From Heterodontus francisci (lineage: Eukaryota), in the NCBI RefSeq assembly GCF_036365525.1, contig NC_090399.1, positions 31,900,430-31,964,429 of the forward strand: a stretch of DNA of 64,000 bases, given 5' to 3'. The position numbers and the translations under genes were made by a program. Shown one piece after another: positions 20,657 to 62,221 of this stretch. The stretch's first letter is position 1. Every line of letters begins with the position of its first letter. The notes under the pieces were generated by a model. It saw only the letters and a list, made by a program, of their open reading frames with translations. It did not search any database and was not told the origin of the DNA.

Positions 20657-23600
20657 TTAATATAAGTCGTTAAAATCAGTCCCATCTACTGAACCAACAA
20701 TATCTGGAAGCAAAGACAACATCTTGATATGAATAATTGACTGTGGAGATTTGTTGCAAATTGAAACGACAGTTCTGGGAAGCAACACTTGGGGAGATTG
20801 GAAGGATGACTTCGGGATGAGGACGAAATTGTTTTCATAACTGAAATGGCCGTGTGAAAACATTCGGTGTGTATAATGTTTATAGCACGCACAAGCATGT
20901 AGTCTGGTTGCACAATATATCCGATCGTTAAATGAGGTGAAACGGAAAGGAATTCTTATTTTTGAACGAAGGGAGATAGTATAATAATAGAAGTGCATTC
21001 TGATATGAACAAGCGTTTTTTTCTCATCAACTATAGCCATAGAGTTAATGTTATCTATGTTAACGGAGTTGTCAGTATTGCAGTTTAACGGATGGTCATA
21101 AAAACCCATCTGGTTCACAAATGTCCTTTAGGGAAGGAAATCTGCGCTCCTTGCCCAGTCTGGCCCATTTGTGACTCCAGACCCACCGCAATGTGGTTGA
21201 CTCTTAACTGGCTTCTGAAATGGCCTAGCAAGACACTCAGTTGCCTCAAGGGCAATTACGGATGGGCAATATGTGCCGGCCATGACAGTGACGCCCACAT
21301 TCCATAAACCAGTCATAAAAATTCCTAACTGGACTAATGAAAGTCGAACAAATGTGTTATTCGTTGCAAAGCTAATATCGGACAATAGTAAGTAGTAATC
21401 AACAAACTGTAACAATCCTTACCATTCGGGGGAATGATGGAATAGACTTCTTCCTCACTGAACCACAAGGGAAGGAGGAAGCAAATCGTTACATTGTTTA
21501 CAAACACTTGGGATATGTCAGACAAAAATAAAGTTTCAAAGTAAAATGTCATTATCTACGCACCATTGAAAAAGTGGGGAAGGGAAGTCTGTGGAAACAC
21601 AAACAGCAAACGAATAAAACATAACTACATAGTAAGACTGCGTTTTAACCATGTATCATTTTCATCATTTGTCTATATTAATTAATATATATTTATTTAC
21701 GGGCAGTGAGGATGGGAAGAACATACTGCAGTCGGCTAACATACTGTTCTTTCATTATGGAATCTAGTTGCATTCCAACTCAAACTGGCAGATGAGCGTA
21801 TGCAGTATCCATTACTGGAAAGGCAATATAAAAATTTAGTTTCAATCCATAATCCAATGGACGTGGTTGAACTGAGTTTCAATCCATAATCCAATGGACG
21901 TGGTTGAACTGAGTTTCAATCCATAATCCAATGGACGTGGTTGAACTGAGTTTCAATCCATAATCCAATGGACGTGGTTGAACTGAATAGGAAATGAATA
22001 TTACATTAGCAAACAAACCACTGTTACTGAGTAATTTACTCATGTAAAATACTGAAGCCTCATTGAACATTGTCATTTGGGAAAATTCTTTAATTGGTGA
22101 TGCTCACCATCCAGGTTAACTTCATGATAGAGCGGGTCATTCCTGGGTGATAAGAAACAAAGAAGAGGTCAGTGCCACTGCACATTTAGTCAAACTGCAG
22201 AGCAATTCGAATAAAAAAGGCAGGAAGCTTTAACTCTGAGATTCGCCCACCTTTCCAGTGGAAGAGGAACATCTGCAAAAGTAAAAAGAACAATGAAATA
22301 CTTGTAACGTTAATGCAATCCGGCTAAAGATACTTTGAAAAAAGGAGACTGTTCCGACGGGTGGGTGGGTCAGTAACCAAAGGATATAGATGTAAAATAT
22401 TTGGTAAATTACCAGAGGGGAACAGAGGAGATTTTATTCGGCTGTGTTTGCTGATAACACAAGCACTAGATGGCGCAGTATTAAAATATGAGCAATTGCA
22501 ACCTGATCAACAAACGTCGCTGTCTGCGACGTCTCAGGCAGCTGCCAGTAATAAAAATGGCTCAATTTGGCACTGTAAAACGAATGGAACCCAAGCTCCC
22601 TCACCCCACAATGGCTATGATCGCCACCTCCACTCCCTCAATCGCCGCAGTTTCCCGCTGCCTGCCGCAAACGCCACTTCTTGTCCCCTCTCCCTCCTGC
22701 GCCCGCCTTCTCTCCGCTCTCTCCTGCCACTTCAGACTGCGCCCTGCCATTCTCTCCCGTGCCTGTCTGCTCGCTCCCTCCCACCGCCCGCTCACCACCT
22801 CGCCACCAGCAGAAATGGCAGGGGGTGGAGGGGGAAGCGAGCCGGGTGCTGGCAGCGAGCGGGGTGATGGAGCGGCGAGCAAGTAGGGGCAGTCTTGAGC
22901 AGGCAGGAGCGGGAGAGAATGGCAGGAGGGAGTAGGGAAAAGAAGCGTCGATTGAGGCGCTGACCGCGGGAGGGTGCGGGCTGCTGTTGGAGCGGATGGA
23001 GGCAGCGACCGCGGCCATGGAGGGGTGAAGCAACAGTCTGACTTCATTCCGTCTGACGCCATTACACGATTTTGTCAGACCCATACTGGCAAGCTGGCAA
23101 ATGTTCTGATGCACTGATAGCGTCCATGACTGTTCTGTGCATGCTCTGCGTTGTCAGGAGACACTTTTTAATGCAGAGAGTTGTTATGCTATGGAATGCA
23201 CTATCTGAAGGAATGGTGGAAGCAGATTGACGGCCAGCCAGTGAGCTGAAAATTAGCCCAAAGTGCCACTCACACCCACATTTTTCGGCAGTGGTCATTG
23301 GATAATATTTGTGGGCTGGAATCCAGTCTGACCTTTCCACCTACTTAGCCTAGAACAGGTAATACCGAGACTAATTGTATCACACAATCACCAGTCCCAG
23401 TGAGTAAGTTAGTTCAGCGCATGTCATAGAGCAACCATGGGATCACTCCGGTGCATTAGACACAGTAGTAAGACTGGGCAGTGCATGTACTCTCTAAACC
23501 GACTCTCCATTGAGAAGTGGGCTCAACATGATGAATGTGCTTTACTCATCAGCTGGGTTAATTTCATCATAGCCGGAGCAAGTGGTGTCCATACAGGGTC

Positions 23601-26600
23601 TGGAAAAGCTAAAGCAAAATCACATAGTAATGAACCCAAAACCCAGATCATTATAAAAAAAAGTCTCTTACTGTCATTACCACAAAATAACCTTTGGAAA
23701 AATAAATATTTATCCTTTGATGCAAACAAAACAAACACATTTAATACGATTTAATGAAATTTAAATTGTATACATCTCTTATGTCCTCCCAGCAACAATA
23801 ATCAATAAAACTATTGAAGTACTTTTCTAATAATAAATGTTATTTAAAAATGTGTAAAGGACAATTTAAACACATTGACCAGTTAAATAGATATAACTAA
23901 TACTCACTATTAACTTGAATGCTACTGCAAGGCACAATATTGCTTTGGAACCAATAGGAAAAAAGGAAATCAATGTCACTTGATTGAATATCTAAATACA
24001 CATCACTTTAACTAAATAACACTCTGCACTTCGATATTCACTGACCTTTGTAACACTGCAGGCTCGGGGACTGCTGAAATCGAAGGTGATGGAGAAAGTG
24101 TTACAACTTTGCTGCGTACGGCATAACTTTTTTCTTATTTATAAGTCACAGTGTTCAAACCACAATCCGGCCTCGATCATCTCATGGTTTCAACTGAACG
24201 TTACCAGTATTGTTTACCTACTCAAACTCTATACATATTCAAATGCTTAGTATTAAATATATAAGTATTTGACGTAATTTCTGAGCGTAAGCTATATGCA
24301 GCTGACTGCAGCTCACAAATGTAAAAATAATAGCCTGAAAATGATATCTAGGGAGGGACACTTGCCGTATTACTAGATATGGAAACATTCGGATTCTATT
24401 TTAACAATAAGCAACCATTAATAATGCAGAAAGATCAATATCACACGAGCCCATTAACGGCCCATTCGCTAATGTCACCTGGACTGCTTCATAACCCATC
24501 ATGCAAACATGTCCATAGTAGTAAAATAATGCAACTTAAACAAGTCACTTACGAGCTAAAGAGATAGCGTCAAAAATCCAATCATTCCTTCTGAATCACA
24601 AACAGAAAAAGCGCATTATCGATCAATGCAAAAATTATTGTTAAAAAAGAGGGGATTTACAGTGGGGAAGATTTACCAACCTCTGAAATTGTAGGCCACG
24701 AACTGTAGAAAGAAAAATTGACAGAGAAAAGTAACAGTTTGTATCTGACCATATCGAAGACATCAGTAAGAACCAAATGTCACTGCATTAGTTTGCATTT
24801 GTATGAATGTATCTATTTTATGGATATATCTGCAAGCGGAATGCTGTCCCTTATAAGAGTTACCTTTTGTCAGATAGTAACATGAGGAGAACAGAATGAA
24901 AGCTCCCAAAGCTCCGGCACTGACATACACGAATGTGTAGCGAGTCTGTGATTCGCTGGGTTTCTGTGTAGACGCTTCCAGCGAAAGCTTGCCCAGGCAG
25001 AAGAAAACAAGAGATTGTTGCCCCAGGACATCACTTCCTATCTCCCTTTCTCCACTGCAGATGAATATACAGTGTGCCCCAACACCAACATCTCCATCAA
25101 TTATAATGAGATTTAATTTCAATGGATGAAGAAAACTGCAGATGTCGTGCTGATTTTTGTGCTGATTTTTCCATTCGCCCCTGTATTTGTTAATTGGTCT
25201 TCTTATGTGTAGTTACGTGTGTGCGTTTTTTAAGAGTTTAAGAACTAATTTTTGATGTTATGAAATTCAGTAGTTATCGTGACAAAAAAGCCTAACGATT
25301 ATAAATTCGCAATAGTTGTCAATATTCTCCGGGAGAGGTGTTGGCTGTGTATGACTCTGAATGTTTGCATATGCGCCAGTGGTCTCTGTGCAAGCGTGAT
25401 CTACAGAGAGACGGGTGGTGAGACTGACACTGGTAGAAAACCTTGCAAGTTATGATGGAGCGGTAAAGAAATCCCAATTGTTTTCCTCGTTCCCTGGGAA
25501 ACATATTCATTTTGAAAAGTCTACCTCTACCTTGTCTACACCCTCTGTGTGTATGTATATATGTGTGTGTGTATCTGTGTGCAAACTATCATAACTGCTT
25601 CATAAACAGTTTGGTGATTTGACGGAAACAATAATTAAACACAAGCGGTTGACTGATATACACGTGCACCTTGACATAGAGAGAGAATGTTATCCTCATT
25701 TTCACTATGCTAATCTATTTTCATTACATGTAAGACCCGCGGTGCCTCCGCCCTTACCGAGTAAGCGACTGACCGACCTAGTGATTATAATGAAGTGTCA
25801 ACTCACGCACTACATTAAGTGTTGTTCCTTGACCTTGTTTTTCCTGAAATCCCATTAGTTCCACTTTGCAGTAATATATCCCTGAATCGTAATGTCTCAG
25901 ATCTGTTATATTAATGGAAGCGTCCCTTTTCCCTTTGAAATCGTCTGCACTTGCCCGAGTTATTCGCCCACTGTATTCCACAGCTTGGTCGGTGACTTCA
26001 GCTCCGTCTTCCGTGTTTTTGAACCATTTGAACACACCGACTCCTGAAGGGCCTTCATACGTGCAGTTGAGGATCACCGACTGCCCCTCAGTGGCACTAA
26101 TGAAGGGTGGGGTTTGAATAACTCTGATGCTGTAGTCTGCAGGAACTCCTGCCAATATATGAATTGGGATAATTTCTGAATAACAAGACACTCCTTATTT
26201 CACATAATGAAAATGAACGTCAAAACAAACAACCAAACGCTCAAGATCCTGGAAGCCTCTAGTGAAGAGTCCACAGAGACTGCGCTTATCCAGAAAGCCA
26301 GAGAGAGTTTCTAGAAATGGGAAATTTGACCCTGTTGGTTGGGTGCATTTTTCAGAGACCCCGCGTCCCAGCTGGGGCCTGAGACTTGCGGAGGGCTCAC
26401 AGGAAAATCTCCGGCGCAGAGACAACCATTTCCAACAGCTCGCTTTGGTCGACAGAAATCGCAGTTGATGAGCCCAGAATTTCCCCAGAAACCTTCCACT
26501 GCAGGAGTGGTGACGCCGAGCCTCGGGGATTCATCCTATCGGGGTCGGTTTTCATCGTTACCGCCTGGGCGTCGGGAAAATCTAGGGGGAGATTCCCATG

Positions 26601-27308
26601 GCCCTGATAGAACCCACCGGATTTCCTTCCATTAGTTTGAATGGAAGTTCTGTCACTTGGATCCTTCACTCCAGAGTTATTTCTGCGTTCTGCTCAGGCG
26701 ATATTTAACGACCAGGCGGTAAAGGCGAATATTTACATTATTGTGGTTTATTAACTTAATTCAGCAAGCATAACTGATCAGTCCTCAGCATCGCAAAGAG
26801 ATAAGTGAACAAGTAGCCATTTTTATAGCTATCGCACATTTATGACTCAGTTGTTAACATCCTCGCCTCTGTGTCAATGTTATGGATTGGAGCCTCACTC
26901 CATCGGTCTATCATGTCACTTAGGTCCATTGTCCAGTACAGCGCTATCGGAGTGCTGTTTGATAGAGTTACGAATTTATCTGGAAGACAGAGACTTGATG
27001 CCCCTCTGTATGTTCAGTTGGTTCAAATGAATGGTACCAATTCCATGCCGCTATTCTAAGAAGACGGGAGATATCTCTGGTGCCCTGTCCAACATTCATT
27101 CCCAACTAACCCCAACAGAACTAGATAATTCACTTTATCTCTGTTCGTTTTACCATCCTGGTTTCCTACCACTGTCTCTGTACAGGCGAGGCGCTGTGAC
27201 ATCTTTCTGAGACACTATTTAAGACGTTACATTCTCTGACTGAAGTGTTGTGAATCGCTACTTACCAGAGAAAAGGGTCAGGACCCACACTATGCACCTG
27301 GAATCCAT
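20657..27308 (-). CDS. Gene A: NKp30/NCR3-like VJ-type IgSF receptor, ~240 aa, 10 predicted coding exons (27308-27266, 26148-25807, 24992-24864, 24702-24681, 24590-24553, 24073-24046, 23924-23908, 22272-22251, 21457-21423, 20703-20657)
   Basis: The exons sum to 723 nt, are phase-compatible and have no internal stop. All introns are GT-AG except the TM-exon acceptor (GG). AATAAA lies ~130 nt past the stop (20528-20523). Confidence 0.7.
21095..21310 (+). mobile_element. SINE fragment sharing the 3' tail of the second CR1-group family
   Basis: Matches the fuller copy at 38760-39100. Confidence 0.65.
21423..21457 (-). CDS. Gene A cytoplasmic exon SEEEVYSIIPPN (Tyr motif)
   Basis: Strong pyrimidine tract + CAG acceptor, GTAAGG donor, 35 nt, phase 2->1. 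Confidence 0.7.
21838..21986. repeat. Perfect 37-bp tandem repeat x4 (TTTCAATCCATAATCCAATGGACGTGGTTGAACTGAG)
   Basis: Identical head-to-tail units with no spacers, in a gene A intron. Confidence 0.95.
24864..24992 (-). CDS. Gene A stalk/transmembrane exon (KLSLEASTQKPSESQTRYTFVYVSAGALGAFILFSSCYYLTK)
   Basis: Hydrophobic helix and AAAG|gtaac donor. The 129-nt length equals the gene B TM exon. The acceptor reads ctGG; a fallback AAG acceptor lies at 24974. Confidence 0.8.
25807..26148 (-). CDS. Gene A Ig V-set (VJ-type) exon, NKp30/NCR3-like
   Basis: B-strand C (LNCTY), C-strand W (FKWFK), GAEV...EYSGRI, DSGIYYC and a J-like GQGTTLNV in one 342-nt phase 1-1 exon. An alternative in-phase acceptor exists at 26136. 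Confidence 0.93.
27266..27308 (-). CDS. Gene A leader exon MDSRCIVWVLTLFS(G)
   Basis: 43-nt phase-1 exon with hydrophobic core and GTAAGT donor. Confidence 0.85.
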
Positions 27309-34450: not shown

Positions 34451-35240
34451 GTGTGGGGGGGGGGGGACTCTTAAACAATTGTGTTATACTTGAAATTATC
34501 TTACATATTATTCCTTCTACTTGACAAGTCAATGTCATTGCTTTAGGCACAATCATTCCATTAGCAAACGGTTCGCAGCCTACACGTTTCCAAATTTCCC
34601 ATATTAACCTTGACAGATTTCCCTGTTAAATGAAGAAAGGTGACAGAAGTGAAGTTTTGCCCCAGTACGAGAGAGATATAGCAGTGCATTCTGAAGTAAT
34701 GATTAACTCTTGTTAATACAGTTTTACAATGATAATCAGCACCGTGCTAATACAGCAGATCCACCCTTAGGCATTGACTATTTGCTCTAGTTTCATGCAA
34801 CTTAAAGCTACCATATATAAATGGAAGTTCAGTCCGATCCGTCTGATTTTGCACTTCAATTGCCGAAACTAGGAACAGACGTAATTGCACTGACACCGGT
34901 GTTAATAAATGCGCGTTAAATACTGGCTTATGGATCAATGTTCTTTATGCATTAGCATTTTTAAGGGGTCTTGATAGAACCGAAATTATAGGGAATAAAT
35001 CATCATTATACACCCAAAATCTTCTTTATTGATAGATCAATGTTCCTTTCCTAAGAAATACAAATGTTAACTCTTGAATGTATTTGTGCTACCCGCTCCC
35101 ACGGCCATCTCTAGTAATATCAGTTGATGATATGGAAAGACATTTAAGTTTGGTCTTCACCCTTCCAGTCAGATCTAAATTCCGATCAGTCAAACTGTAG
35201 GTAACTATTGACAGATTAAATTGTTGCATTTATGTTCCAG

Positions 35241-35571
35241 ACAATGGGTTTACCAGTGAAATCAAAGTCTTCCAGTCCCCGAACTCCATTAATGTAACAG
35301 AAGCGGGTCGGTGCAGCTAAACTGCACCATTGAAGCGAACGCTACTGTCGGACGAGTTTTTTTTAGAGACGGACCTCATCTCATAGCGGAATTCTTTCTA
35401 TTAGAGCCGGATACTCAAATCAGGGTCGAATTACTTGTGCAAAAAAAAATGGCTCTTGTTAACATCCTCAATTTAGGAAAAAATGACTCGGATTTTTACT
35501 ACTGCGAGGTGGAAATTCCAGGGATTGGGAAAGGAAACGCGCGACAGGAACACAGCTCATTCTAACTGACA
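35241..35571 (+). pseudogene. Frameshifted Ig V exon (EIKVFQSPNSINVTE/VQLNCTIE...DSDFYYCEVEIPGIGKGN/TGTQLILTD)
   Basis: ttccag acceptor and GTGAGT donor. The length is 331 nt (not 3n), with frameshifts near 35303 and 35540, and the C-strand Trp is absent. Confidence 0.88.
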
Positions 35572-40254: not shown

Positions 40255-40469
40255 GAGATCCAAATGTTATCTGACATTTCCCCACACTCAGCTTCGGATT
40301 ACAAGTTGCAAAAGCGGTGATGCTGGCCATTCTCATAATCACAGACCTAACAACCTACTTGTGCCCCTGCTGTGTGCTATGTTACATCTGCAGAAAGTCG
40401 ATGCAAATTTTATCACCAAGTTTTTTTTTCAAGGTGCCCGTGCTCGCATTATGTCGCAATGTTGATTGA
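40255..40469 (+). pseudogene. Degenerate TM exon (DPNVI*HFPTLSFGLQVAKAVMLAILIITDLTTYLCPCCVLCYICRK...)
   Basis: Strong acceptor ttttgtttccaacag. The phase-1 frame gives a Lys-containing hydrophobic stretch, with a stop at 40272-40274. The 3' boundary is uncertain. Confidence 0.6.
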
Positions 40470-44229: not shown

Positions 44230-44500
44230 AAAGGAATCTGAACTGTAAAGATTGACAGCAGCGGTAACCGTGTCAGCCGCGGTTAGAGTAGTGCAGGTAT
44301 ACCAAAGTGGTTTCATTCTTACTCGGAATCCCACATAGATGGCCATCATCAGCTTTGCAGTAATAACTCTTTCCAACACCGAGGTCCTTAAAGGACATGG
44401 TCTTCTTGCAGATTCTTCGCAGGCGGGAATATTGCGTAAGCTGCAGTCTTCCCCTTCTTTCCAATTAGGAATGGTATCCTTCCTCCATAAATGTCATAGC
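44230..44500 (-). mobile_element. Old LINE RT fragment (L2/CR1 group)
   Basis: LERVITAKL...GFR remnants. Confidence 0.45.
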
Positions 44501-44509
44501 TTAATGACA

Positions 44510-46620: not shown

Positions 46621-46779
46621 TGGGGGGCGGGGGGTTGTGGGGGGGGGGGTGGATGGTGGTGGTGGTGGTGGGAGGGGAGCAGTGGAGGAGGTCGAGAGGG
46701 TAGTTGGAGAAGGGCAGTGGGTGGACGTAAATGTTCCCGTGGGGTGAGGTCCAAAGTGAACTACTGGTCTCAGGAAAAT

Positions 46780-47010
46780 AAATGCTTGCATTTATATAAC
46801 GCCTTTCACGATCATAGGCCGTCCCAAAACATCTTAGAGCCAATGAGATTCTTTTGCAGTGTAGCCACTGCTGTAATACAGGGAAAGGACAGCCAATTTC
46901 CGCACAGCAAGCTCCCGCAAACAATGTGACCATGACCAGTTAACCTGCATTTGTGATGTTGATTGAGGGACAAACATTGGCCAGGACGCCAGGGAGAACT
47001 TCCAGACTTT
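46780..47010 (-). mobile_element. DeuSINE-like fragment
   Basis: Reverse complement of the core/tail at 63360-63580. Confidence 0.65.
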
Positions 47011-47059
47011 ATTGGAAGTTCAATTTCTCTGCAACAGCCAGTTAGCTATCTGACTAAAA

Positions 47060-48070
47060 CAAAAACAAGAAAAGCTGGAAATACTCAGCAGGTCTGGCAG
47101 CATCTGTGGAGGCAGAAGCAGAGCTAACGTTTCAGGTCAGTGACCCTTCATCAGAACTGGCAGATATTAGAAATGTAAAAGGTTTTAAGCAAATAAAGCG
47201 GGGGTGTGGCAAGAGATAACAAGGGAGAAGGTGTTGATAGGACAAGGTCACAGAGAATAACTGACCAGAAGGTCACGGAACAAAGGTGAACGGTGTGTTA
47301 ATGGTGTTCTGAAAGACAAAGCGTTCATACAGAGAGGGTGTGAATTGAGGCATTGAGAGGCATCTTGACAAATACATGAATAGGATGGGAATAGAGGGAT
47401 ACAGTCCCCAGAAATGCAGAAGGTTTTAGTTTAGGCAGGTATCAAGATCGGTGCAGGCTTGGAGGGCCGAATGGCCTGTTACTGTGCTGAACTCTTCTTT
47501 GTTCTTTGTTGACTGTAAAGCACAAAGCACTCCAACCACAAACATTAGAAAAAAAATTAAAAACAAAACAGTGGGTAGGCAAAGGAGAAACAAACTAAAA
47601 AAAAACCTATGATAAAATAACCAAATAAAAAAGGGAACGGCAAAGAAAAAAAGGAAAAAAAATCATTAAACATAAAAAGGGGGGCCCGTCATGCTCTGAA
47701 GTTATTAAACTCAATTTTCAGTCTGGCAGGCTGTAGTGTGCCTAATCGATAAATGATGTGCTGTTCCTCGAGCTTGCATTGATGTTTACTGGAACACTGC
47801 AGCAATTCCAGGACAGAGATGTGAGCATGAGTGCGGGGGTGGTGGTGGAGGGTTGGTGAAATTGCCAGCAACTGGATGCTCGGGGTCATGCTTAAGGACT
47901 GAGTGGAGGTGTTCTGCAAATTGGTCACCCAATCTGTGTTTGGTCTCCTCAATGTAGAGGAGACCACATTGTGAGCAGCAAATACAGTATACGACATTGA
48001 AAGAAGTACAAGTAAATCGCTGCTTCATCTGAAAGGAGTATTTGGGACCTTGGATAGTGAGGAGAGGAGC
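47060..48070 (-). mobile_element. Penelope-like element 3' fragment (GIY-YIG endonuclease + pseudo-LTR), with a short CR1 tail inserted at ~47355-47507
   Basis: FTCTSFNVVYCICCSQCGLLYIEETKHRLGDQFAEHL and LGTLQPARLKIEFNNFR motifs. Confidence 0.85.
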
Positions 48071-51000
48071 CATGTGACTTAAACTGGTCTGACTACTTCT
48101 GTGTATTGGAGAGGCAACTGCTGGGTCCCCATTGTTTCAACATTGTCTGGTATTATATAAATGTCCTTCCAGTTAGGGTTTGCAATTTTTAAGTTTTTGT
48201 TCATATAACAAAATAATGTCTTGGCAGGTGGAGATTTGCCTGACACCTCCGCACTCAGGGGAAGGAAATGTGATTTGAAGAAAATGGTACATTTCATTAC
48301 AGAATTTGAGAGAAATATAAGATAGAGAAAGAAATCATGCATTTCTCTCATTCATTTCCATTCATTCGCCAATCTTGAAGCTCATAAAAATGGTCTGTTC
48401 TGGGTGTCAGGGCTGCTTTAATTTCCCCTTTTTTCCCCTCAGGGGAGTTAGTAGGCGGCGGGTCTTTCCTGAACTCCCTGATTTCTGCAAAGACATTTGG
48501 CTTCAGTGGATACCTGGTTCCTTTTTCCTCTGACTGTGGGGGAGGAGTCTTTGTTACTCTTCCCTTTGTTCTCTGGGACACTCCTACCTGCAGGTATTTG
48601 TGCACACTTAACTGCATTCTCCTGTAACACTTCGACTAGGTGAGGCATCACCCTCACGGTTTCTGTGCCCCCCCCCCCCATGTCTCTCTTTGTCTCTGCA
48701 GGTTCCCAGAAATGCTGTTGGCAATTCTGGTGAGGTGCCTCTCGAGTCTGCATTTACATAGGAGGATGTGGGGTCTAACTTTTCACATTTTTCGGGGTAG
48801 GGGTTTTCATTCAGGATTCTTCCTGGACTTCCTTTAACCTGCCCTCTGGGTCATTTTTTCCCCTTCAAAACTTTTGCCAGCTGTGTGCCTGTCTGCCCCT
48901 TTTTGTTCTCAGCAAGGGTCCCTTGAGGTTCAGCAGCCTTCTGCTGGAGGGTCCTCCTTACACGGGTACAGGACTTAGCGGTCCAGGGTGAACAGTAGGT
49001 TGGGGATTCCCCTCAACTTGGCACATGTGCTAACTCCTGCAGTACTCCACCACATCTTTGTGGTGTTTTGACCTGTCAAACTGCTGTCTTATGTGCGTTT
49101 TGGTCTTTCATATACCGGCATGTACAGCCACTTTAGTCTCGTGGGTCCTTCTTAATATTTCTCTTCGGTACCTCTGTGGTACCACTAACCGGGGAACTAC
49201 TGTCCACTCCTTGCCCTCAGTTCTGTGAGGAGAACACCATTTCCACATCAGTACCTCATTTTTTTAAAAGTAGCAATCAGAGACACCCTCTGCTTCACTT
49301 TCAGATTAGGCAGCCTGTGCTAATTCTTTCAATACTGGGTCGGCTCGCTGCGCCTCAGCTGGGGAAAAGCTGTTTAATTAATTCCCTGGGTCTCCTAACT
49401 GTCCAAAGGAAGTCTCAGCCAGGCAGACCTGATGGTCATCTGCCTGCAGTGCCAATGCAGTCTCCTCTGGGGAGCTGGCTTGATCATAGCCTGATGCATT
49501 ACACATTCAGGGAAACTGCACAGGGACCATCTCCCACCACAGTCGCATCCCTCTTACCTCCATGGTCTTTCTTTCACTACTGGGGGATGGGGGGATGCTA
49601 CGACCTTCACCCCTGCCAGGTTCTTACCTAGGAGCAGGTCAAACCCGCCCACAGGTAAGCTAGGGACAATCCCTACAGTGACTGGTCCCAAAACTAGGTC
49701 GCACTCCGGGTGCAGCCAGTGTGCAGGTACAGTCATACACTGCCCTCTAATAATTCTTTATTAAGAATGGGAGTTTTTTAATTCCTCTAGCAGGATTACT
49801 TCTCTGAGAGTCTGATAAGTGTATTTTTAGAGCCCTCAGCCACTGGTCAAATGCCAGATGCTTACTTCTTTCAAACTCCAGATACGTTTGATTGGCTTGC
49901 TTTTTGAGGGTTCTAAACTTTTGGTGGTAGGCTTCGGGTACTAATTCATATGTCCCAAGAATAGTATTTTTGGTCAGTTCATAGTTTGATGAACTCTCAT
50001 CTGGCAGCAAGGAATCGACCTCATGGGTTTTTCCAGTTAGTTTGCTTTGCGGTAAAGGAGACTAGGTTTCAGTTGCCATTTTAGCTGCCTTGCCAGTTTC
50101 TCAAAGGGCATGAAAAATGCTTCCACATCATTCTCATTGAATTTTGGAAGTAGTTGGGCGAGCTTTAGCAATCTTCTGTGCAGTCCTGAATTCTGATCAT
50201 CCATATTGGCTATGCTTTCACTTGAGTTACTCTGTCGCCCCCAAGTTAGCTCGAGCTGCTTCAACTCTCGTTTTTCGCATTCTTTCCAGAATATTCTTTC
50301 TCTGTCTCTGTCTCTCCTTTCCTCTCTCATTCCTTCTCCTGTCTTTCTCTCTCTCTTTCTCTCTCCTGTGTTTTATTTTCTTCACGTTCCTTTTGGAAGG
50401 ACCTTTCTTTTTCCCTCTTCTGCCTCTCTCTCTCTCTTTCTCTTCTCTGTCTTCTGATTCAAGTTTCCTTTGTTTCAATTGTATCTTTGCTTGTAGTACC
50501 CTCTCTGGGTCTACTTCTAACACTGCCTCTGCCTCCTCAGATTCAAGGGGAAAATGGTTGGCCACTAGCCTTTGGAGTTCAGACTTCCTAGCCTTGCCAC
50601 ATACAGTGATCCCACATGGCTCAGCCATTTTTCTCAACTCCTCCATAGACAGTGCTTTTAACTTATCCCAAGTCATTTCACCCTGGCTTGGAGAGCTACT
50701 CGTTTCAGTTGCAAACATATTAGTATGCAATCACACACAACCACAAGAAAACCTGTATTGATCTGCTCTTTTTTGTTTAGGAACAATTTGGATCCCCACT
50801 TGCAATTTCACTCGTTTGTCTGTGGGTAACAATCCAGATGGTAGCACCCAATTTCTGTTATGACGAGGTGAGCAATGTTTCTAGAGGTCTTTGGCTGTCT
50901 TTACCTGGTCTTATTGTAACGGGGTTTAATTTTAAACACACTGTGTTTTGAGCTTGCCTTTTTGTGAATTCTTGTTCAGTGTTTTCAATTATAAGACAAA

Positions 51001-51722
51001 GAAGAAACGGGCTTTCTTTGGTTTGAAGCAGAAAGATTACATTTATTAAACTTTACCTTAAACTCTAATATGGCTCATGCCTACGGATATATGACATGCC
51101 CACGTTAGCATGCACATGCGATATAGACATGCAGATAGGGACAGAAAAGAGCAGAGGAAAAGATAAGTAGAACAGTTTGAGGCAATATCTTGTATTGTTT
51201 CTCGAGCTCGCTGTAATCCTTGATTGAAGATATGGTCTTGTGTTTCACTGTGGCCCAGTAGTCTTCTTAAAACCTTGCTAATGTAGGAAACCTTTAGTTT
51301 CTCTGAGTTTATGTGTATTCAACAGTTTCGGTTCCCTGAGAGATGAGCAGGCAGGACAGGAGATGTTCTCAGTCCATGAGCACATAGCATTCTCTCCTCA
51401 AATCCCTTTGTTGGGAGTTCAAATTCAAAAAATCCTCCCAGGTTTCCCAGCAGGTTAGTCATGTGACTAGCTCCTCCATGGAACAGTCTCTTCAACTTAC
51501 TTTGTTGGAAGTTCAAATTTCTCGGCAACAGTTAGTCATGTGACTAAAACTGATCTGGCCACTTCTGTATATTGGAGACTCAACTGCTGGGTCCCCATTG
51601 TTTCAACATTGTCTGGTACTATGTAAATGTCCTTCCAGTCAGGGTTTACAATTTTTAAGTTTTTGTTCATGTGGCGAAATTATGTGTGCCTCAGTCTTGG
51701 CAGGTGTGGGATTTGCCTGACA
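48070..51722 (-). mobile_element. Degenerate non-autonomous Gmr1-like Gypsy element: 5' LTR 51722-50856, PBS, gag, protease, integrase N-terminus, truncated 3' LTR 48245-48070
   Basis: TGTCA...TAACA LTR and a degenerate tRNA-Pro-type PBS (TTGGGTGCTACCATCTGGAT). Gag shows LLPKFNENDVEAFF..FEKLARQLKW and YELVPEAYHQKFR; the protease tail is GPVTVGIVPSLPVGGFDLLLG. No RT was found. Confidence 0.85.
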
Positions 51723-53440: not shown

Positions 53441-53775
53441 ATACTCTGTAAAAATGGGGGGCAAATACATTTTATACAAACGTGATATTCTCATCTAATA
53501 CCAAAGAGCCTTATGTTAAAGAATTAGAGATTCCAAACCCTCATAATTTGTACATAAGTGGATCAATGTTACTCATTAAGGTGGAGATCCAAGCATTCCT
53601 CTGGAATTTCCATGGAGAGTTGTCCCGATCTTCCCCCGTTGAAGACCAGCAGGAGCCCCAGAGATGCCAGAGTTTCCGTCGAAATTACGGCGGGAGATGG
53701 GGACAACTCTGCAGAAATTACATCCTTTGTCAGCCTCTGCGGTCTCAACACTGGGATGAATTGTATCAGCTCCGC

Positions 53776-53901
53776 TTACTTCACCGTGGCATACAGAACT
53801 GCTTCTTGGTTCAGGGGGTGCTCTGTTTGATTGTTCTCCCGCAGATTCAGCGTGGCGTATTGCACATTGTCTTCCTCTCTATTGAGATTATCTTCCTCTC
53901 T
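53776..53901 (-). CDS. Gene B terminal exon with two ITIMs (REEDNLNREEDNVQYATLNLRENNQTEHPLNQEAVLYATVK*)
   Basis: VQYATL and VLYATV fit (I/V/L/S)xYxx(L/V). The phase-0 TAG acceptor matches the preceding 38-nt exon. Confidence 0.85.
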   Translation of the reverse strand, partial: REEDNLNREEDNVQYATLNLRENNQTEHPLNQEAVLYATVK

Positions 53902-56900
53902 CTATTGAGATTAAAGTATTTCAGTGTTGAACAAAATATTATAAATTGAATATAACTTAGGCATCAAACACAGTGCAATGATTAACACCCAGCAACGACA
54001 TGTTGTACAGTTTCAATGAATTATAATTTAACCGTTCAAACATTCTCAATAAATAGTATATAAGTCCACCCATCAAATATTGCACAGTTAAATAGAACAG
54101 AAAACACTGTTCTAAATATTGTTGTTCCTTTGAATAGATTTCAGTGTGTCAAAGATTGCACAATTCAATCAAATATATAACAAACAGAGGAAACAGACAA
54201 CTGTTATTAAATTATTACAACTACAATGTTAAAACCCATGCATTTGAAAGCAATTCGCAATACGATCATGGCTGATCTTCGACCTCAATTCCACTTTCCC
54301 ACCCGTTCCCTATATCTCCTGATTCCTTTAGAGCCGAAAAATCTGTCCATTTCAGTCTTGGATATACGCAGCAACTGAACAATCTGGGCTGGAGAATTCC
54401 CAAGATTCACAATCCTCTGAGTGAAGAAATTTCTCCTCACCTCAGTCCTTATCTTGAGATTATGTCCCCGAGTTCGAGGCTCTCCAGCCAGGTAAAACTG
54501 CCTCAGCGTCTACCCTGTCAATCTCGCTCAGAATCTTATACCTTTCAATGATATTTACAGCATCTGTGAAAAACATATTAACCCTGGTAATAACTGTTCA
54601 GGAGAACTTTCTGTTCAGAGGAAATGTTACATCCCACCAGTTATCCTGCCTTTACTATTTTCGGGCGCTGACTGACCGCCTTTGTATATCCAGCATTTCA
54701 TGTTTTGACTCCAGAATTCCAGCATTTTTGTTCTTTCTTATTATCTCCACTCATCAAATTCTATGTGTTTTGTGTATATGTGCATATGTTTATATAGAGG
54801 GCTGGTTGCCTTATTTTATGTGTCTGGGTTATGCTTCATATGTGTGACTCTTGTTTGCGGATGTCTCTTATATGTGTGTGTGTGTGTTTCAGTGTGTATG
54901 GCTGTTTGAATTCTGGGACTGCAATCATGCATTTCCTGGATGCTTCTTGTTGAATTCTAACTAATATTTTAGTCCATGTTTCGATTAATTTTTAAAATTG
55001 CCGCGCCTGCGCGTAAAGCTGGCCTTTGGTACGGGCTGCAGTTTAGTTTAGTTTAGTTTAGAGATACAGCACTGAAACAGGCCCTTCGGCCCACCGAGTC
55101 TGTGCCGACCATCAACCACCCATATATACTAATCCTACACTAATCCCATATTCCTACCACATCCCCACCTGTCCCTATATTTCCCTACCACCTACCTATA
55201 CTAGGGGCAAATCATAATGGCCAATTGACCTACCAACCTGCAAATCTTTTGGCTTGTTCTCGCTTTCCCTCCGTGTGGCAAATTAAACATCTACCATACA
55301 TCCTCAACAAAAACAATTGAGGCCCTCCAACTTGTTTCTGTTTGTTTATATTACTACAGACAACTAAGAAAGCTTCTTAGATTATAATGTAGATGGAAAA
55401 ATAAACCACAGGTCACTTGGCTTAGCAATAACATAAATAGCGTTACATACCCCATTTGTTCCTCTGCGCTCAGAGCTATTATTTGTCTCTGTAAAACAGG
55501 GGGCGGGGAAGGCGGAATGACATCGTATAAATTAATGTGATCTATACAAGAAAATACAACACACTGGGTCATAAATACACTGATGTATAATGCTATAGCA
55601 TACAACATTACATTTTTGAAAACTGTAGAGCACAATGCAATGAAATATATGGTAGGATATACAGTATCTTAGAACAATATGATGCAATTAGCATAGCGCA
55701 AGATATGCTTTACAATTTACAGCCTCACAGCTCCAGCGACCCGGGTTCAGTTCTGGGTACTGCCTGTGTGGAGTTTGCAAGTTCTCCCTGTGACCGTGTG
55801 GGTTTCCGCCGGGTGCTCCAGTTTCCTACCACAGCCAAAGACCTGCAGGTTGATAGGTAAATTGGCCATTGTAAATTGTCCCTAGTGTAGGTAGGTGGGG
55901 ATATGGTAGGGAATATGGGATAAATGTAGGATTAGTATAAATGGGTGGTTATTTGTCGGCACAGACTCAATGGGCCGAAGGGCCTGTTTCAGTGCTGTAT
56001 CTCTCTCTGATCTAAGCTGGACAATATAAAGCAGTCAAGTTCCCCTCTGCGATTTGTAGGTACTGTATTCACATCTAATTTCTCCGCCCATTATTTTAAG
56101 TGCTTAAACTAGTGGACGAAGAAATTTGATATGAGCACGCCAAGCACTTATGGTACGAGATTAGAGCGAATATACTACAATCGTGACATTGAAACGTACA
56201 TAACAATATCATGTAATAATTTCTCACAAAATCAGCGTATGATAAGAAAATCGTATAAAGTATTTTATTAACCATAAATCTTAACACTCTAAGTTGACTT
56301 TGTGACCAGAACATCTAATATGTCTCACTTAATGACTGTTCTGGAAACAGGAGTTATTGAATCAGAGAATCATTCAGCTGAGGAGAAGGCCATTCGGCCC
56401 AAGCTGCCTGTGCTGACTCTCTGAAAGAGTTACTAATTAGCCCCATTCCTGATCCTTCCACATATCCAGCAAGGTGTCCCTTTATAAGCATATATCCGAC
56501 TTCCTTTTCAAAGTTGCGACTAAATCCGCTTCCATCACCCTTTCAGGCAATACATCCCCGATCATAACAATTCGTTGAGTTATAAAGAAAAACCACATCT
56601 CGCTCCGGCTTTTTCCCAGTCATTTTAAATTTGTATCCTTTAGTTACCAACAGAATCACAGATTATAACTAATAGATCATAAAATTAACCAGACTAGCAA
56701 CTAGAAATCAAATTCAGTCGACTGTTTGCGTTTATCAAAAGCACTAGGCTGTACACATTTCTCTCTGTTACTCACCCTTTTCCGGGATCTCTGCGTTTAT
56801 TGGATCTGGCCTGGAGCAAAAGGAGGCATCAGGAAATTTAGACGCTCGAGAAAACACCAATGAAAAAGAAAATGACGATATAAAAGAAGTAGTTCTATGT

Positions 56901-59900
56901 TTACAGCTACCTTGCGGGTTGCTGACGAGTGGCTGTGAGGAAAGGAAGGTGAAGACAAAAAAATTAAAGAGCTGAAGCTATTATTTCATTTGCTTCTTAT
57001 TGATATAATTGGTAGCGAATGGACTGGCCAATTTAAATTTAACCCAACTCGTCGAGAAGCTGACAGGGTGGGGTTGCAATTTTACGCGTACTTGAAATCA
57101 ACGGGAGAACAATATTGGGCGGGTTTAAACCCGGCGTTTCAGCCGGTTCTGTGGGTTTCCCGCCCGACGGGTGAGGTTAAAATTAGCAAAGAATTTACCA
57201 TTCGCATGAAAATGTACAGAGCTACAATTGGCATCGTTACCTTTCTTAAGGCAGCTTCTGATAACAAATATGAGTACAACGCTGATCAGGAGAGACGCCA
57301 CTGGTGCCGCCACATAGCCAAATGATGGGATCTTTATTATGTACTTGTCATTGCTACTGTCTTCAGAATCTGCATGAAAATGTATAGACAAGGCGGTCAT
57401 GAGCAGGGTAGTGTTCACATTGAGATTGACTGTCAGTAGATATGACGCAGATTCCAATCCCTTTGAAATGTGGCGCTATACTAACATTTCTCACTGCACA
57501 CATCAAACTGAGTCACGGATTAGAGCGCAAAGTGGCACGAGCGGTCAAACGGAGAGATTCCCACCCTTGAATTTACACTGTGGGAATTTCAATGGAAGGA
57601 CGCTTAACTTGTTGGTGCCAATTTCCTTTCATTTAGTTGGCGGGATGTGGGGTGGTGGAAACGGGTGCGGTCTGCTCAGAATGTCGTTCCTGCCGCCGGG
57701 TTTTTCTGAATCCACTACATCCTGGGGATCCGGGAACGAAAAGACACAACTTCCCTCAGATTTACGGGAGGGTTAAGAGAAAAAGAGCGTGCAGATATTG
57801 GACTTGCCTAAACTGGGTGGTTAATGTGGTTCTGTAGGGGGCCGAGCATTTTAACGGAGGCCAATGTATTAGTTTATGTTTACATATACAGCTCCACCTC
57901 CATTTACCAAATGATAGCGAGATCTAATTTATCATTGTTTATTCTCAATAGCCTGCTTGATATCGGTATGCTGAAATAGCAAGATGCTCCTTAGGCGGCA
58001 CCCAGTCTTCATTGGGTTGACTAGTTGACTGCAGTTCTGCCGAAAATTATAGGCAACTAAATTTAATTATTTTTTAAAATAACAAAATTGTCGGGATATC
58101 ATCCCATGGTGTCTTTGAGAAGGTGGTGGTGAGCTGCCTTCTTGAACCGCTGCAGTCCATGTGCTGTAGGTACACTCACAGGAAGGGAGTTCCAGGATTT
58201 TGACCCAGTGACAATGACGGAACGGCGATATGTTTTTTTTAAAGTCAGGATGGTGTGTAACTTGGAATGGAACATGGACTTTCGGTGTTCCATGTAGCTA
58301 TTCTCGTTGTCCTCATCGGTGCTGGAGGTCGCGGGGTTGGGAGTTCCAATCGATCTAATGGATAACCTACCCTTTCGGCCAATGCTACTCACTGGAAAAA
58401 TCTCCTATTTGATTCGTAACAATAATCTCACCAGCCCAAACTTACCAGGTTTATCACGTATCACTCTCAATGTGGTCCCGGCTCCAGACGCTACTCCGAT
58501 TCCGATCATCACGTTGCAAAAATAGAAACCGGTATCCTCCGGTTTCAGCTCGATTATTCTAATCGAGGCGTCTCTCCTCCTGCTGAAATCCTCTTTACTT
58601 GGCCCGAACACCCTACCTCGGAATTCGGCCGTACGGTTGGAAACTTCATTTCCCTGTTTCGTGCCTCGGTGCCATTTGTAGTCGCCGATTCCAGTGGGAC
58701 CTTCATATGTGCAGTTGAGGTTGACGGTCTCTCCCACCGCCTTGCTGAGAGATTCCGGCCTCTGAATTACTGTGATTTTACCTACAGTAACTGCTGCAAA
58801 TGGATAAACAGAATTACCATGGCGCTGTGATAAGGGAAAATTAATGTCTAATTACGTGATGCGGCATTTAATTAAAGTCATTATGAAATTAATGGAATTG
58901 AAAATGAGTCTATTTCAATAACAGGCGGGCACTGCGCAACGCCAATTTTGCGCCCAGCCGTCAAGTTGAAAATCTACCGTATGTGTGCGTGTGAACCTGG
59001 TGTGCCAGAAATGATCAAAAGACTGCTTACCGGAGAAAATGGCGATTGCCCAGGTAACTGCAGCCCAATCCATTCTCTCTGTAGGCGATAGAACAACTTC
59101 AGAAAATACTTCCATTGGTATACAGACAGGAAAATTTGAGCAATGCAGTGGAACCTGAGTTCGATTCCGGATATGAGCGACGGAAAAAAATGAAGTGCAG
59201 GCTGTTTACAGAATCGCAGTTTTTTTTTCTGGCAAATTGTCTTAACGACCCCGCCCCGCCTCTTGCACACACACACACGCACACACTCACATTCTGTCTC
59301 AATGGCACTTCACAGCTGAAGCACACACTTGGGCTGGGTTGTTAGCTTCACCAAGTAACTTGGGTAGATAATTAGCTGAGGATAGGGAAGAGAGTAAAAG
59401 TGAATGATTCCCCCCCCCCCCCCTCCCCCTGACTATGGTGAGAACTATGCAATAGAGATTCCTAGGGGTGGGTATTAGGACCATTGCTCCTTTTTGTTAT
59501 GTCAAAACCATCTGGACTTGTGTATAAGGAGTGAAGTTTCGAAATTTGTAGATGATATAAAACGTGGCAACGTGGTAAATAGTAATTGTAGCTGAGTTCA
59601 GGGCAACATCAACAGATTGGTACAATGGGCATTTACGCGGCAGATGCGATTTAATGCCGATAAGTGTGCACTTTGGAAGGGAGAACTTGAAGAGGCAGTA
59701 TAATCTAAACGATAGTATTTTGAAGGGGCGCAAGCGACCCTGGGGGTGAACATTCACAAACTTTTAAGGCAGTAGGGCAAGTTGATAAGGCAGTTAAGAA
59801 AGCGTATTGGATATTTGGCTTTGTAAATGGGGGAATCGAATTCAAAATCAAGAACGTCATGCTAAAGTTTTGCAAATCAGTGATGAGGCGTCGGCTGGAG

Positions 59901-62221
59901 TATTGTGTATAATTGTGGGCACCACACTTTAGGGGGATGTCAAGGCCTTGGAGAGAGTACAGAGGAGGTTTATCAGGATGGTACCAGCAGTGAGGGTCTT
60001 CAGTTATGAGGAGAGTTTGGAGAAGCTGCGATTGTTCTCCATAACTGGAGAAAGTTAAGGCGAGAAATGATAAAGGTGTTCGAAATAAGAGATTGTCATC
60101 GACCAAGTAGGGAGCAACTGTTTCCTGTGGCTGGTGGGTCGGGAACCAGAGGTCATGGATTTAAAATAATTGGGAAAAGAATTAGAGGCGAAATGGGGAG
60201 AAATGTCTTCACCCAGAGGGTTGTTAAGGACTGGAAAACTACCTGAAAGGGCGGTCGAATCAGGTTCTTTGACCAAATTAGACATTTAATTGAAGAGAAC
60301 TAATCTGCAGGGTTTGTGGGGAAAAGCAGGGGTGTGAGGCTCAATTGGACAGTTGACATTGCAACAGGCATGACGGGCCAAATGGCCTCCTCCTGCGTGG
60401 TCGGATTCTACGATACTACCGCCTGGGCCTCAAACATACTCTGGACAGTGCACAGAGAGGAAATGTGGCTGGGAAGATCCCACGTCTCTTACAGCACCCG
60501 ACGGATTTTCCTTTCTGCGCTCCGCCCAGGCAGTGATTAACTAGATCTGAAAGACGGAATTTTAACACACTCTTCCTCATCCGCACAGATGAGCTCTTTC
60601 ACGGACAGGCTGCATTCTCTCACACAGAGGGGCACAATCCTAGTGATATGCATACATAGCGATTCTGGACGTGGCTGTGAAAATGCTCTCTATTGATCCG
60701 TCCCAGCTAAATGGGAAACTGGTTCTAAAAGAGAGGAATTATAATTGTTGGAATTATACTTTTGTTCAGGAACCCATTTCCCGTGTAAATGCTATTGGAC
60801 CTGTTTCTATGTTTCCTTTGACACCTTTTAAAACAGGTAAGGATTATTTAACATTTAATGCAATTTCATTTGCACCAGAACAACAAAACAACTAGTATTC
60901 TCATCGTTTGACTAAGTCGTGAGTCATGTCCAGTGTGGTCGAGCTATATGTAACACCGCTATTAAACCAAGCAAGTCGGAGTTTGATAAAAATTAATTCA
61001 ATTACACCGAGAACAAAAAAAACATAAACGGGTTGTCAATTTCAGGAATGATTGAATTCCTGAACTTGAAATGAACAGGAACACAAGTAGAGGTTTGAAA
61101 AGGTAAAAAAAAAAAAGCCAATGCAGAAAATCTGAAACAGCAAAATGAAAGAGTTGGAAATAGGCAATTGTTCAGTCAGCATTTGGAGTGAAATGGACGG
61201 GGTAACATTCCGGTGCTGGCGCACTATTACCGTCCCACTTCAGACTTTAACCCTGGCTCGCTCTTTCAAATGTTTGGAAAATGCGCTCTTGGTGCAGAAT
61301 AACCAGGGAGGAAACGATGAGAGGGCCTGAACAACTTGCAATTGCCGCTTCTAGCAATGCGCCTGCAAGCAGAATTAGTGTTTGTACCGAAGAAGGGTCA
61401 CTGACCCGAAACGTTAACTCTGCTTCTCTTTCCACAGAAGCTGCCAGATCTGCTGAATGGTTCCAGCATTTCTTGTGTTTGTATTAGTGTTTGTACCCCC
61501 CAGCGCCCGCAGTTTCCCCTTCAGCGCCTCGTGTCAAAGCCTTGTTGCACCGCACCTGTTGTCCTCACCCCTATCTATCCTCTCTATCTCTACAATACTG
61601 GAATCTCCCCTGATTAGAAAACTGCAGCATTCCCCATAACAAGAACTTTAAAAAGCTCGAAAGCCTGAATCACAATTCAAGTCTCCAGTTAGTCTTCTAG
61701 TTATAGGTATTAAGAAAGACTGCACAGGCTAGGGGATCTTGTTTCTCTAGGAGACGGCTGAGGGGAGACCTAATAGAGGTACTTAAAATTATGAAGGGGT
61801 AGATGCAGAGAAGATGTTTATATTTGTGGAAGAGTTCAAAATTAGGTGTCATAAATATAAGGTAGTAACTAGTAAATCCAGTAAGGAATTCAGGACAAAC
61901 CTCTTTAACCAGGGAGTGATGAGAATACGGAACGTGCTGACACGTAGAATCGTTGAAGTGAATCGCAAAGGTGCATGTAAAGGGAAGCTAGATAAGTACA
62001 TGAAGGAAAACGAATTGATAAGATTAGCTGAGGTAGGGTGGGAGGTGGCCTGTTTGGAAAACAAACAGTGACAGACCAGTTGGGCCGAATGGCCTGTTTC
62101 TGTGCTGTAAATAGAATGTAATGTTCGGCGCAAACATCGCACCATTAGCCTACTCACCTTGTGCTAACAATCGACAGCAGCTTCCAAATAATAATTCGCC
62201 TTTGGGACCCTTAGCTCGCAT
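53776..62221 (-). CDS. Gene B: inhibitory NKp30/NCR3-like VJ-type IgSF receptor with two ITIMs, ~253 aa, 7 predicted exons (62221-62158, 58793-58446, 57369-57241, 56932-56911, 56810-56776, 55488-55451, 53901-53776)
   Basis: All introns are GT-AG, phases run 1,1,1,2,1,0, and the total is 762 nt with no internal stop. The leader exon is the least certain part. Confidence 0.8.
57241..57369 (-). CDS. Gene B stalk/TM exon (DSEDSSNDKYIIKIPSFGYVAAPVASLLISVVLIFVIRSCLKK)
   Basis: Uncharged hydrophobic helix, CAG acceptor, AAAG|gtaac donor, 129 nt. Confidence 0.88.
58446..58793 (-). CDS. Gene B Ig V-set (VJ-type) exon, NKp30/NCR3-like
   Basis: LNCTY, YKWHR, GNEVSNRTAEFRGRV (cf. human NKp30 GKEVRNGTPEFRGRL), DTGFYFC and GAGTTLRV. 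348 nt, phase 1-1. Confidence 0.93.
59425..60420 (+). mobile_element. Degenerate CR1 LINE 3' fragment in gene B intron 1
   Basis: KFVDD and LEYCV.LWAPHFR remnants. Confidence 0.8.
61710..62115 (+). mobile_element. Degenerate CR1 3' end
   Basis: RLRGDLIEVLKIMKG remnant and gggccgaatggcctgtttctgtgctgta tail. Confidence 0.75.
62158..62221 (-). CDS. Gene B candidate leader exon MRAKGPKGELLFGSCCRLLAQ
   Basis: 64 nt, phase 1, AAG|GTGAGT donor. It is only weakly hydrophobic but shares CRL with the locus P leader. Confidence 0.5.

Follow-up and report, generated by a model that had tools for sequence, protein, structure and literature searches.

Introduction

Mammalian NKp30 is encoded by one activating gene, and its product couples to CD3-zeta or FcR-gamma through an arginine (Arg) in the transmembrane (TM) segment and binds B7-H6. 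Ohta and colleagues reportedly described in 2006 the Xenopus family XMIV, V-type genes located within class III of the major histocompatibility complex (MHC), some of them with immunoreceptor tyrosine-based inhibitory motifs (ITIMs). To our knowledge, inhibitory natural killer (NK)-type receptors of cartilaginous fish are poorly defined. Here we analyze a window of 64,000 nucleotides of the horn shark (Heterodontus francisci, genome of 6.0 Gb), positions 31,900,430-31,964,429 of NC_090399.1, which contains three loci with a variable-joining (VJ)-type V exon, called gene B, gene A and locus P. We refer to this chromosome as C29; positions in Mb are on C29, and coordinates of features are those of the window. 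The three loci are probably a receptor with two ITIMs that is likely inhibitory (B), a receptor with an uncharged TM and a decaying tail (A) and a pseudogene (P), all of the shark NCR3 (NKp30-like) family, with likely activating counterparts elsewhere on C29.

The NCR3 family and its MHC linkage are already published and are not new. PMC12227049 treats NCR3 as an MHC-linked VJ gene that does not rearrange, with citation of eight accessions from nurse shark, and in the PMC10751288 supplement 11 rows from white shark, catshark, sawfish and lungfish bear the label NCR3. In the accessible portions of PMC11599192, PMC11999971, PMC12272517, PMC10450919 and PMC12619710, the signalling types of sharks were not found described. 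A search of titles and abstract openings found none describing activating and inhibitory shark NCR3 members; the core family papers lay outside that search, and absence from print is unproven.

Results

Three single-exon V loci related to NKp30

The first-pass annotation of this DNA proposed three related single-V-domain loci, and all three are present where it placed them, with V exons at 58796/58793-58446 (gene B, minus strand), 26148-25807 (gene A, minus strand) and 35241-35571 (locus P, plus strand). Each V exon contains a C-W-C core and a J-like GxGT strand within one exon, and no site resembling a recombination signal sequence was found within ~600 bases of any of them. Together with the splicing of the gene B V exon as a whole, these features bear out the proposed germline-joined VJ design. 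The V domains are 46% identical between A and B, 37% between A and the P type (the intact relative of P) and 32% between B and the P type. A single horn-shark clade of A, B and the P type was rejected by the approximately unbiased (AU) test (p=0.0002).

When a profile of 19 horn-shark V exons was compared with PDB, NKp30 was the top single-domain chain (83.5 bits), SIRP chains scored at most 62.3 bits, and single immunoglobulin V domains scored less; multi-domain chains outscore NKp30 with this profile only because their scores are summed over domains. NKp30 was also the best match of the gene A V domain (53.8 vs 44.8 bits) and the only match of the intact relative of P. CD28, CTLA4 and PD-1 chains were absent from the PDB matches listed for the profile, A, B and the P relative. 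A 44-row tree (111 columns) was built from 28 database domains and 16 chosen horn-shark exons, with near-duplicates, the frameshifted P and its frameshifted copy P' left out; a 107-row tree was run in quick mode only. In the 44-row tree, gene B groups with nurse-shark NCR3 and a catshark protein (support 100/99), to which its V domain is 66-67% identical, and gene A groups with the second V domain of the same catshark model (99/98). Genes B and A, the P type and a gene with a lysine (Lys) in its TM each join orthologues of other sharks, and the SIRPs form a clade of their own. A position of gene B within the mammalian SIRPs was rejected (AU test, p=0.0025). The NKp30-best profile and the grouping of gene B with nurse-shark NCR3 uphold the NKp30/NCR3 scaffold suggested earlier, and sequence gives good support for placing the window loci in the shark NCR3 family of NKp30-like, single-exon VJ genes.

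Gene B, a putative inhibitory receptor

Gene B has eight exons in an open frame, and its structure is identical to RefSeq isoforms X1 and X2. Contig names below (X1 rec, X2 rec) refer to sequencing runs and not to isoforms.

62158-62328, minus strand: 5' exon with an in-frame upstream ATG at 62221, in spliced contigs X1 rec 7 and X2 rec 12 and in RefSeq models P0002, P0004 and P0005.
59031-59078, minus strand: leader exon of 48 nt with AG/GT sites; its length equals the 48-letter gap in X2 rec 12.
58446-58796, minus strand: single-exon VJ-type V with tandem acceptors at 58796 and 58793 (Pfam V-set; spliced contigs).
57241-57369, minus strand: exon for the stalk and an uncharged TM (TM from a hydropathy scan); contigs X1 rec 6 and X2 rec 12 connect it to V.
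55451-56932, minus strand: tail micro-exons 56932-56911, 56810-56776 and 55488-55451, in an open frame with AG/GT sites and matching RefSeq X1 and X2.
53776-53901, minus strand: last coding exon with two ITIMs; exon and 3' untranslated region covered by X1 rec 3 and X2 rec 10.

The signal peptide begins at the second ATG, in the leader exon, and the catshark and nurse-shark orthologues start at that methionine. The two ITIMs, VQYATL and VLYATV, are canonical, with their tyrosines (Tyr) 22 residues apart, and the TM is uncharged. Contig X2 rec 12 runs from the 5' exon through the 48-letter gap to V, TM and the opening exons of the tail, whose intervening intron is retained; in X1 rec 6, V is joined to TM with no C1 domain between them. 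The uncharged TM and two ITIMs first read for gene B are therefore confirmed in the sequence, and its V-TM joint and 5' exon in spliced contigs. The catshark model XP_038671257 opens with the gene B orthologue, in which both tyrosine motifs are kept, one being a canonical ITIM by the pattern used. Since gene B is spliced and has a pair of inhibitory motifs, a dampening effect on immune cells is likely, and its sequence makes it a likely conserved inhibitory receptor of the NCR3 family.

Gene A, a predicted long-tailed receptor in decay

Gene A was read together with its paralogue A' at 31.013 Mb, the V domain of which is 92% identical and the RefSeq models of which fix the exon frames.

27266-27308, minus strand: leader exon, from AG/GT sites and frame; homologous to the RefSeq model of A'.
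25807-26148, minus strand: single-exon VJ-type V (Pfam V-set; best PDB match NKp30).
24864-24974, minus strand: stalk and uncharged TM exon with Arg ahead of the TM; mutated at the acceptor that A' uses.
21423-24702 (range), minus strand: tail exons 24702-24681, 24590-24553, 24073-24046, 23942-23908, 22272-22251, 22142-22108, 21588-21564 and 21457-21423, from the A' alignment, the A' RefSeq models and the open frame.
20657-20703, minus strand: penultimate exon; its donor, present in A', is lost and it runs into a stop.
16726-16776, minus strand: last exon with a YATV motif; contig X1 rec 8 joins exon 21457-21423 to it.

The tail is built of repeated pairs of ~22-nt and ~35-nt exons, with a tendency for every pair to include a YxxI/V motif. 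These exons can also be read in another open frame, which was dropped because the RefSeq models of A' use the tyrosine-motif frame. The last exon (16776-16726) lies outside the range first annotated, and its YATV is out of frame when it is spliced directly to the donor at 21423. Relative to A', gene A has one Tyr changed to Phe, one exon pair (~23.5-23.7 kb) destroyed by a deletion and a donor mutation, and the lost penultimate donor. It retains PLYHEV and EEVYSII; neither is a canonical ITIM, the latter because of Glu at Y-2. The juxtamembrane Arg sits before a complete uncharged TM and is His in A'. In the catshark orthologue of A, an Arg lies inside the TM, at a position where A and A' have Gly.

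Of what had been described for this gene, the micro-exon tail with EEVYSII is real and lies in the frame of the A' RefSeq models, but the Arg is outside the TM and is not conserved. Junction mapping had been proposed as a check; it recovered the V-TM joint and the 5' exon of gene B in contigs, and in three runs, all from one sample, no contig covered the leader, V and TM exons of gene A, which counts neither way. The uncharged TM, the Arg outside it and the decaying tyrosine-motif tail indicate that gene A is not of the activating type. By its predicted exons it is a long-tailed, uncharged receptor in decay, not activating in its current design, and it is possibly descended from a charged form.

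We note that two RefSeq isoforms of A' (C29:31,013,000-31,031,300), P0098 and P0156, skip the TM exon and would be secreted with the tyrosine tail kept. The A' tail has one ITIM-pattern motif and one ITSM (immunoreceptor tyrosine-based switch motif). Four perfect copies of a 37-base unit lie in an intron of gene A (window 21838-21986).

Locus P, a dead duplicate

35241-35571, plus strand: frameshifted VJ exon of a pseudogene, inverted relative to A and B.
~34865-34964: leader-like remnant.
40255-40400, plus strand: candidate TM exon with Lys, from sequence; 3' end not fixed.

The V exon of locus P has at least four frame-shifting indels relative to its intact relative at C29:14.83 Mb (74% DNA identity). 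P' at 30.99 Mb is a second broken copy, 85% identical in DNA to the P V exon, with a different frameshift and a mutated acceptor. Locus P is a dead duplicate. The Lys segment at 40255 has an AG acceptor in the right phase, but an in-frame stop precedes it, and a canonical donor was sought and not found. It is the sole hydrophobic candidate of its kind in the 10 kb downstream of the P V exon; the frequency of such segments in the DNA scanned is ~0.19 per 5 kb (96 matches in 2.53 million strand-bases, real exons included). The Lys is also present in P'; since P and P' are ~83% identical throughout, this is not independent support. In protein comparison the candidate matched only its own duplicate copy, and its likeness to the Lys-TM of Mustelus is not significant (E ~3; DNA score 18). 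The intact relative at 14.83 Mb has an unrelated TM exon followed by a tyrosine tail. The inversion and pseudogenization reported for this locus thus stand, whereas its Lys-TM exon is plausible but unproven.

The wider family on C29

A search of the genome with the gene B V exon gave at least 31 matches, all on C29 (150 of 274 candidates were scored). They fall at 14.8-15.4 Mb (11), at 31.0-31.5 Mb (18) and inside the window (2). A profile search, in stretches covering part of those regions, found further diverged or broken V exons. Part of the window has an old copy on the same chromosome:

10675-56620 of the window: block with an old inverted duplicate at C29:30.980-31.037 Mb, in collinear blocks of ~73-87% identity.

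The duplicate contains A' and P' and, of a B copy, no more than the 3' end, in which the Tyr of the second ITIM is lost. An old inverted duplicate with independently broken copies supports the birth-and-death turnover proposed for the cluster.

Most family members have an uncharged TM in our scans. TM exons with Arg were found at 31.244, 31.306 and 31.440 Mb; the V exon at 31.30 Mb has stops and that at 31.43 Mb has no normal acceptor, so only the Arg gene at 31.24 Mb looks intact. A Lys-TM gene lies at 14.85 Mb and is conserved in Mustelus. Within 14 kb of the V exons at 31.083, 31.127/31.130, 14.943 and 15.379 Mb, the scans found no TM exon. In RefSeq models, the members at 31.18, 31.22, 31.39, 14.97 and 14.83 Mb carry ITIMs and the one at 14.90 Mb carries an ITSM. 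The Arg-TM gene at 31.24 Mb has a V domain that shares 75-77% identity with those at 31.18, 31.35, 31.39 and 31.478 Mb, and it forms a clade (98/93) with the ITIM members at 31.18 and 31.39 Mb. Similar ectodomains therefore stand on an Arg-TM chain (31.24 Mb) and on ITIM chains (31.18 and 31.39 Mb) by sequence design. It is this subgroup, 0.45-0.8 Mb from the window, and not the trio in the window, that has the predicted anatomy of paired receptors.

Other features of the cluster were also seen. At 14,826,000-14,854,000 the Lys-TM gene is directly upstream of the P-type gene, and a fused Mustelus model has the same order. Two or three V exons stand in tandem in members at 31,474,000-31,479,000 and 31,349,000-31,393,000, and a three-V RefSeq model is named 'protein turtle-like'. 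The genes at 31.35 and 31.39 Mb have V domains 99% identical, a recent duplication.

MHC linkage and complement C4

C29 is the MHC chromosome of the horn shark. Of 64 class I matches in the genome, 61 are on C29; the one closest to the window, at 32.07 Mb, is ~107 kb past its end. Class II alpha exons are present at 52.0 and 53.9 Mb. A search for class II beta gave no match, but its positive control also gave no signal. C29 carries three thioester genes, at 30.9, 31.8 and 46.1 Mb, one of which begins in the window:

1410-3977, minus strand: complement C4, predicted exon 1 at 3977-3913 and exon 2 at 1611-1410 (Pfam MG1 and C4_MG1).

This C4 gene starts 13 kb past gene A and extends out of the window to ~C29:31.79 Mb. 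The best PDB match of its thioester exon is human C4 (54.7 bits vs 44.6 for C3), and it has a basic alpha-gamma cleavage site. The adjacency to C4 in the first-pass annotation is thereby confirmed by exons 1-2, the thioester exon and the basic site. The MHC class III-type setting also holds, with C4 in the window, class I from 32.07 Mb and class II alpha on the same contig, and the synteny check proposed with it found C4, class I and class II alpha and the same gene order in catshark.

The residue at the catalytic position is Asp in the window C4 (C29:31,821,461-31,821,676) and His in the C4 at 30.9 Mb (30,911,754-30,911,972). According to PMC10751288, the second class III C4 of other elasmobranchs has N, S or R, and the copy near class Ia has Asp; two adjacent class III C4 genes lie beside a class Ib cluster and a third near class Ia. 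The layout of C4 genes on C29 fits this description of three genes. In the catshark table of the same supplement, the order is C4B-H, NCR3, LOC119975535, RGL-like, C4C-S and LOC119975537. The last of these is the fused B+A orthologue, unlabelled in the published table, on the same strand as in horn shark.

VJ proteins of other vertebrates also split into ITIM-tailed and Arg-TM short-tailed forms (P0099, P0066, P0134, P0063, P0019, P0057 and P0026), with Arg-TM short-tailed relatives in frog and bichir and ITIM-bearing relatives in gecko and turtle. One bichir VJ protein is fused in a model to PRRC2A, which we take to be a class III gene.

The remainder of the window contains mobile-element remains. 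A LINE-type reverse-transcriptase fragment lies at 41304-43200 (Pfam RVT_1), with 86-94% identical copies at window 149-1067 and at nearby loci. The stretch at ~43900-51700, between P and B, is degraded and retroelement-like with repeated terminal-like segments, and is absent from the inverted duplicate. A weak SCAN-domain match was found at 49747-50061.

Discussion

We regard gene B as the likely inhibitory receptor of the window, gene A as an uncharged relative losing its tail and locus P as a pseudogene, with probable activating relatives elsewhere on C29. What such receptors would do, from ligand to signal and cell type, we infer from their sequences. By analogy to NKp30, a ligand such as B7-H6 or another B7-family protein would engage the single V domain of gene B; Src-family kinases would phosphorylate its two ITIMs, and SHP-1 or SHP-2 would bind through their tandem SH2 domains and damp lymphocyte activation. 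If gene A signals at all, its YxxI/V motifs would form a docking tail for SH2 domains, and no adaptor with an immunoreceptor tyrosine-based activation motif would be used; gene A is losing motifs that A' retains. Activating function would fall to two genes, one with an Arg-TM at 31.24 Mb and one with a Lys-TM at 14.85 Mb, coupled to adaptors of the FcR-gamma/CD3-zeta or DAP12 type.

Several points weigh against this reading. Gene B alone gives a near tie in PDB, with mouse SIRP-alpha at 46.3 bits and NKp30 at 44.6, and RefSeq names two of its isoforms SIRP-alpha-like. The trees contain no mammalian NKp30, the deep branches of the 44-row tree are weak (68/83) and their order is not settled with 111 columns, and gene B as sister to all SIRP-like rows is not rejected (AU test, p=0.28). 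The splice evidence comes from one sample (X1, X2 and X4), and the runs are presumed to be RNA. The nurse-shark protein deposited as NCR3, QTT61898.1, is an orthologue of gene B by its V domain (66% identical), and its tail, 28 residues long, contains no ITIM. In RefSeq isoform X3 of gene B, splicing to an upstream acceptor (window 55451-55541) adds a YDVI motif, shifts the frame and removes both ITIMs; this isoform is a possible non-inhibitory splice form. For the Arg gene at 31.24 Mb there is a short tyrosine-free tail candidate at 31.250 Mb, and no tail exon was found for the Lys-TM gene at 14.85 Mb. The P-type gene at 14.83 Mb has an ITIM as well as an Arg in its TM, an Arg that three other sharks lack, so charge is no clean label in this family.

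The first-pass annotation took the window loci as a paired activating/inhibitory system. That the trio is itself a KIR/LILR-like pair, with B inhibitory and A and P activating, jointly and recently expanded, now appears unlikely. The V identities (A-B 46%, A-P type 37%, B-P type 32%) and the old separate lineages, a single clade being rejected at p=0.0002, argue that A, B and P are not such a pair, even though P has a candidate Lys-TM segment. In catshark, the A orthologue with Arg inside the TM adjoins the B orthologue with both tyrosine motifs, so a charged gene and an inhibitory one may have made up the A-B tandem of the ancestor. Against a pair in the window, A and A' carry Gly where the catshark orthologue has its Arg, A' has His in place of the juxtamembrane Arg of A, the tail of A is long and bears tyrosine motifs, and P is dead in both copies. 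In the window there is no intact charged-TM gene of the activating type (A lacks the charge; P is broken, with its Lys exon unproven) and there are no closely similar ectodomains on activating and inhibitory chains, and the NKp30-type design, an Arg inside the TM with a short tail, is absent from A and B. The pairing claimed for the trio is therefore not supported.

Improbable to a slightly greater degree is that these genes are T-cell co-inhibitory or co-stimulatory receptors with a CD28/PD-1-like role, or general SH2-scaffold receptors, instead of NK-type pairs. One nurse-shark NCR3 subtype is reportedly expressed in the thymic cortex (Kinlein, 2021). The single-V architecture with tyrosine tails and the ITSMs of A' and of the member at 14.90 Mb would suit such a role, as would the fact that the B7 family gives ligands to both NKp30 and the CD28 family, according to PMC11599192. 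The proline-rich CDR3 motif of the CD28 family, as given there, is however absent from our alignment, and no CD28, CTLA4 or PD-1 chain was among the listed PDB matches. This alternative concerns role more than ancestry and is compatible with an inhibitory gene B.

Least probable is that gene B and its relatives are shark SIRP-like (or other VJ-type) myeloid paired receptors with a generic V similarity to NKp30: the RefSeq names, the 1.7-bit lead of SIRP-alpha in the gene B list and the unrejected sister position speak for it, and it is opposed by a family profile favoring NKp30 by more than 20 bits, the rejection of a place for B inside the mammalian SIRPs (p=0.0025), the lone V domain not followed by C1 ahead of the TM in spliced contigs, the MHC class III locus and an orthologue deposited as NCR3.

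A broader proposal, which we hold tentatively and think doubtful, is that the shark MHC harbors, between the class III C4 genes and the class Ib cluster, an ancient NKp30-based paired complex, in which V exons are still exchanged or duplicated among ITIM members and Arg/Lys-TM members. It would supply the so far lacking NK-receptor system, inhibitory and activating, of cartilaginous fish and read B7-H6 or the class I molecules nearby, and mammalian NKp30 would be its lone activating survivor. What the preferred reading offers is a concrete, spliced two-ITIM candidate in gene B, whose place beside C4 is conserved between two shark orders, and a testable pair in the subgroup at 31.24 Mb, where V domains 75-77% identical stand on predicted Arg-TM and ITIM chains. 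If that subgroup shares a ligand, the NKp30 scaffold would have served as a paired-receptor system early in jawed-vertebrate history.

Among the described systems, the closest is the shark NCR3 family as represented by nurse-shark QTT61898.1, with which the window loci share the single-exon VJ-type V, the MHC chromosome and the neighbourhood of class III C4. The nurse-shark protein is short-tailed and lacks an ITIM, whereas the horn-shark family is expanded (at least 31 V exons) and includes multi-V, ITIM, ITSM, Arg-TM and Lys-TM members. Mammalian NKp30 resembles the window loci in being the best single-domain sequence match, in its MHC class III location and in its VJ exon; it differs in that A and B have no TM charge and B carries ITIMs. 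The relation of Xenopus XMIV and of amphibian and reptile VJ genes to the shark clusters is not settled in our trees. KIR, LILR and SIRP share with the horn-shark cluster clustered genes, opposing signalling designs and pseudogenes, and the horn-shark subgroup that most resembles them carries 75-83% identical V domains on Arg-TM and uncharged chains; the window loci, unlike them, are too divergent for a pair. The immunoglobulin scaffolds also differ, being C2 in KIR and LILR and V plus C1 in SIRP-alpha, versus a VJ-type V here.

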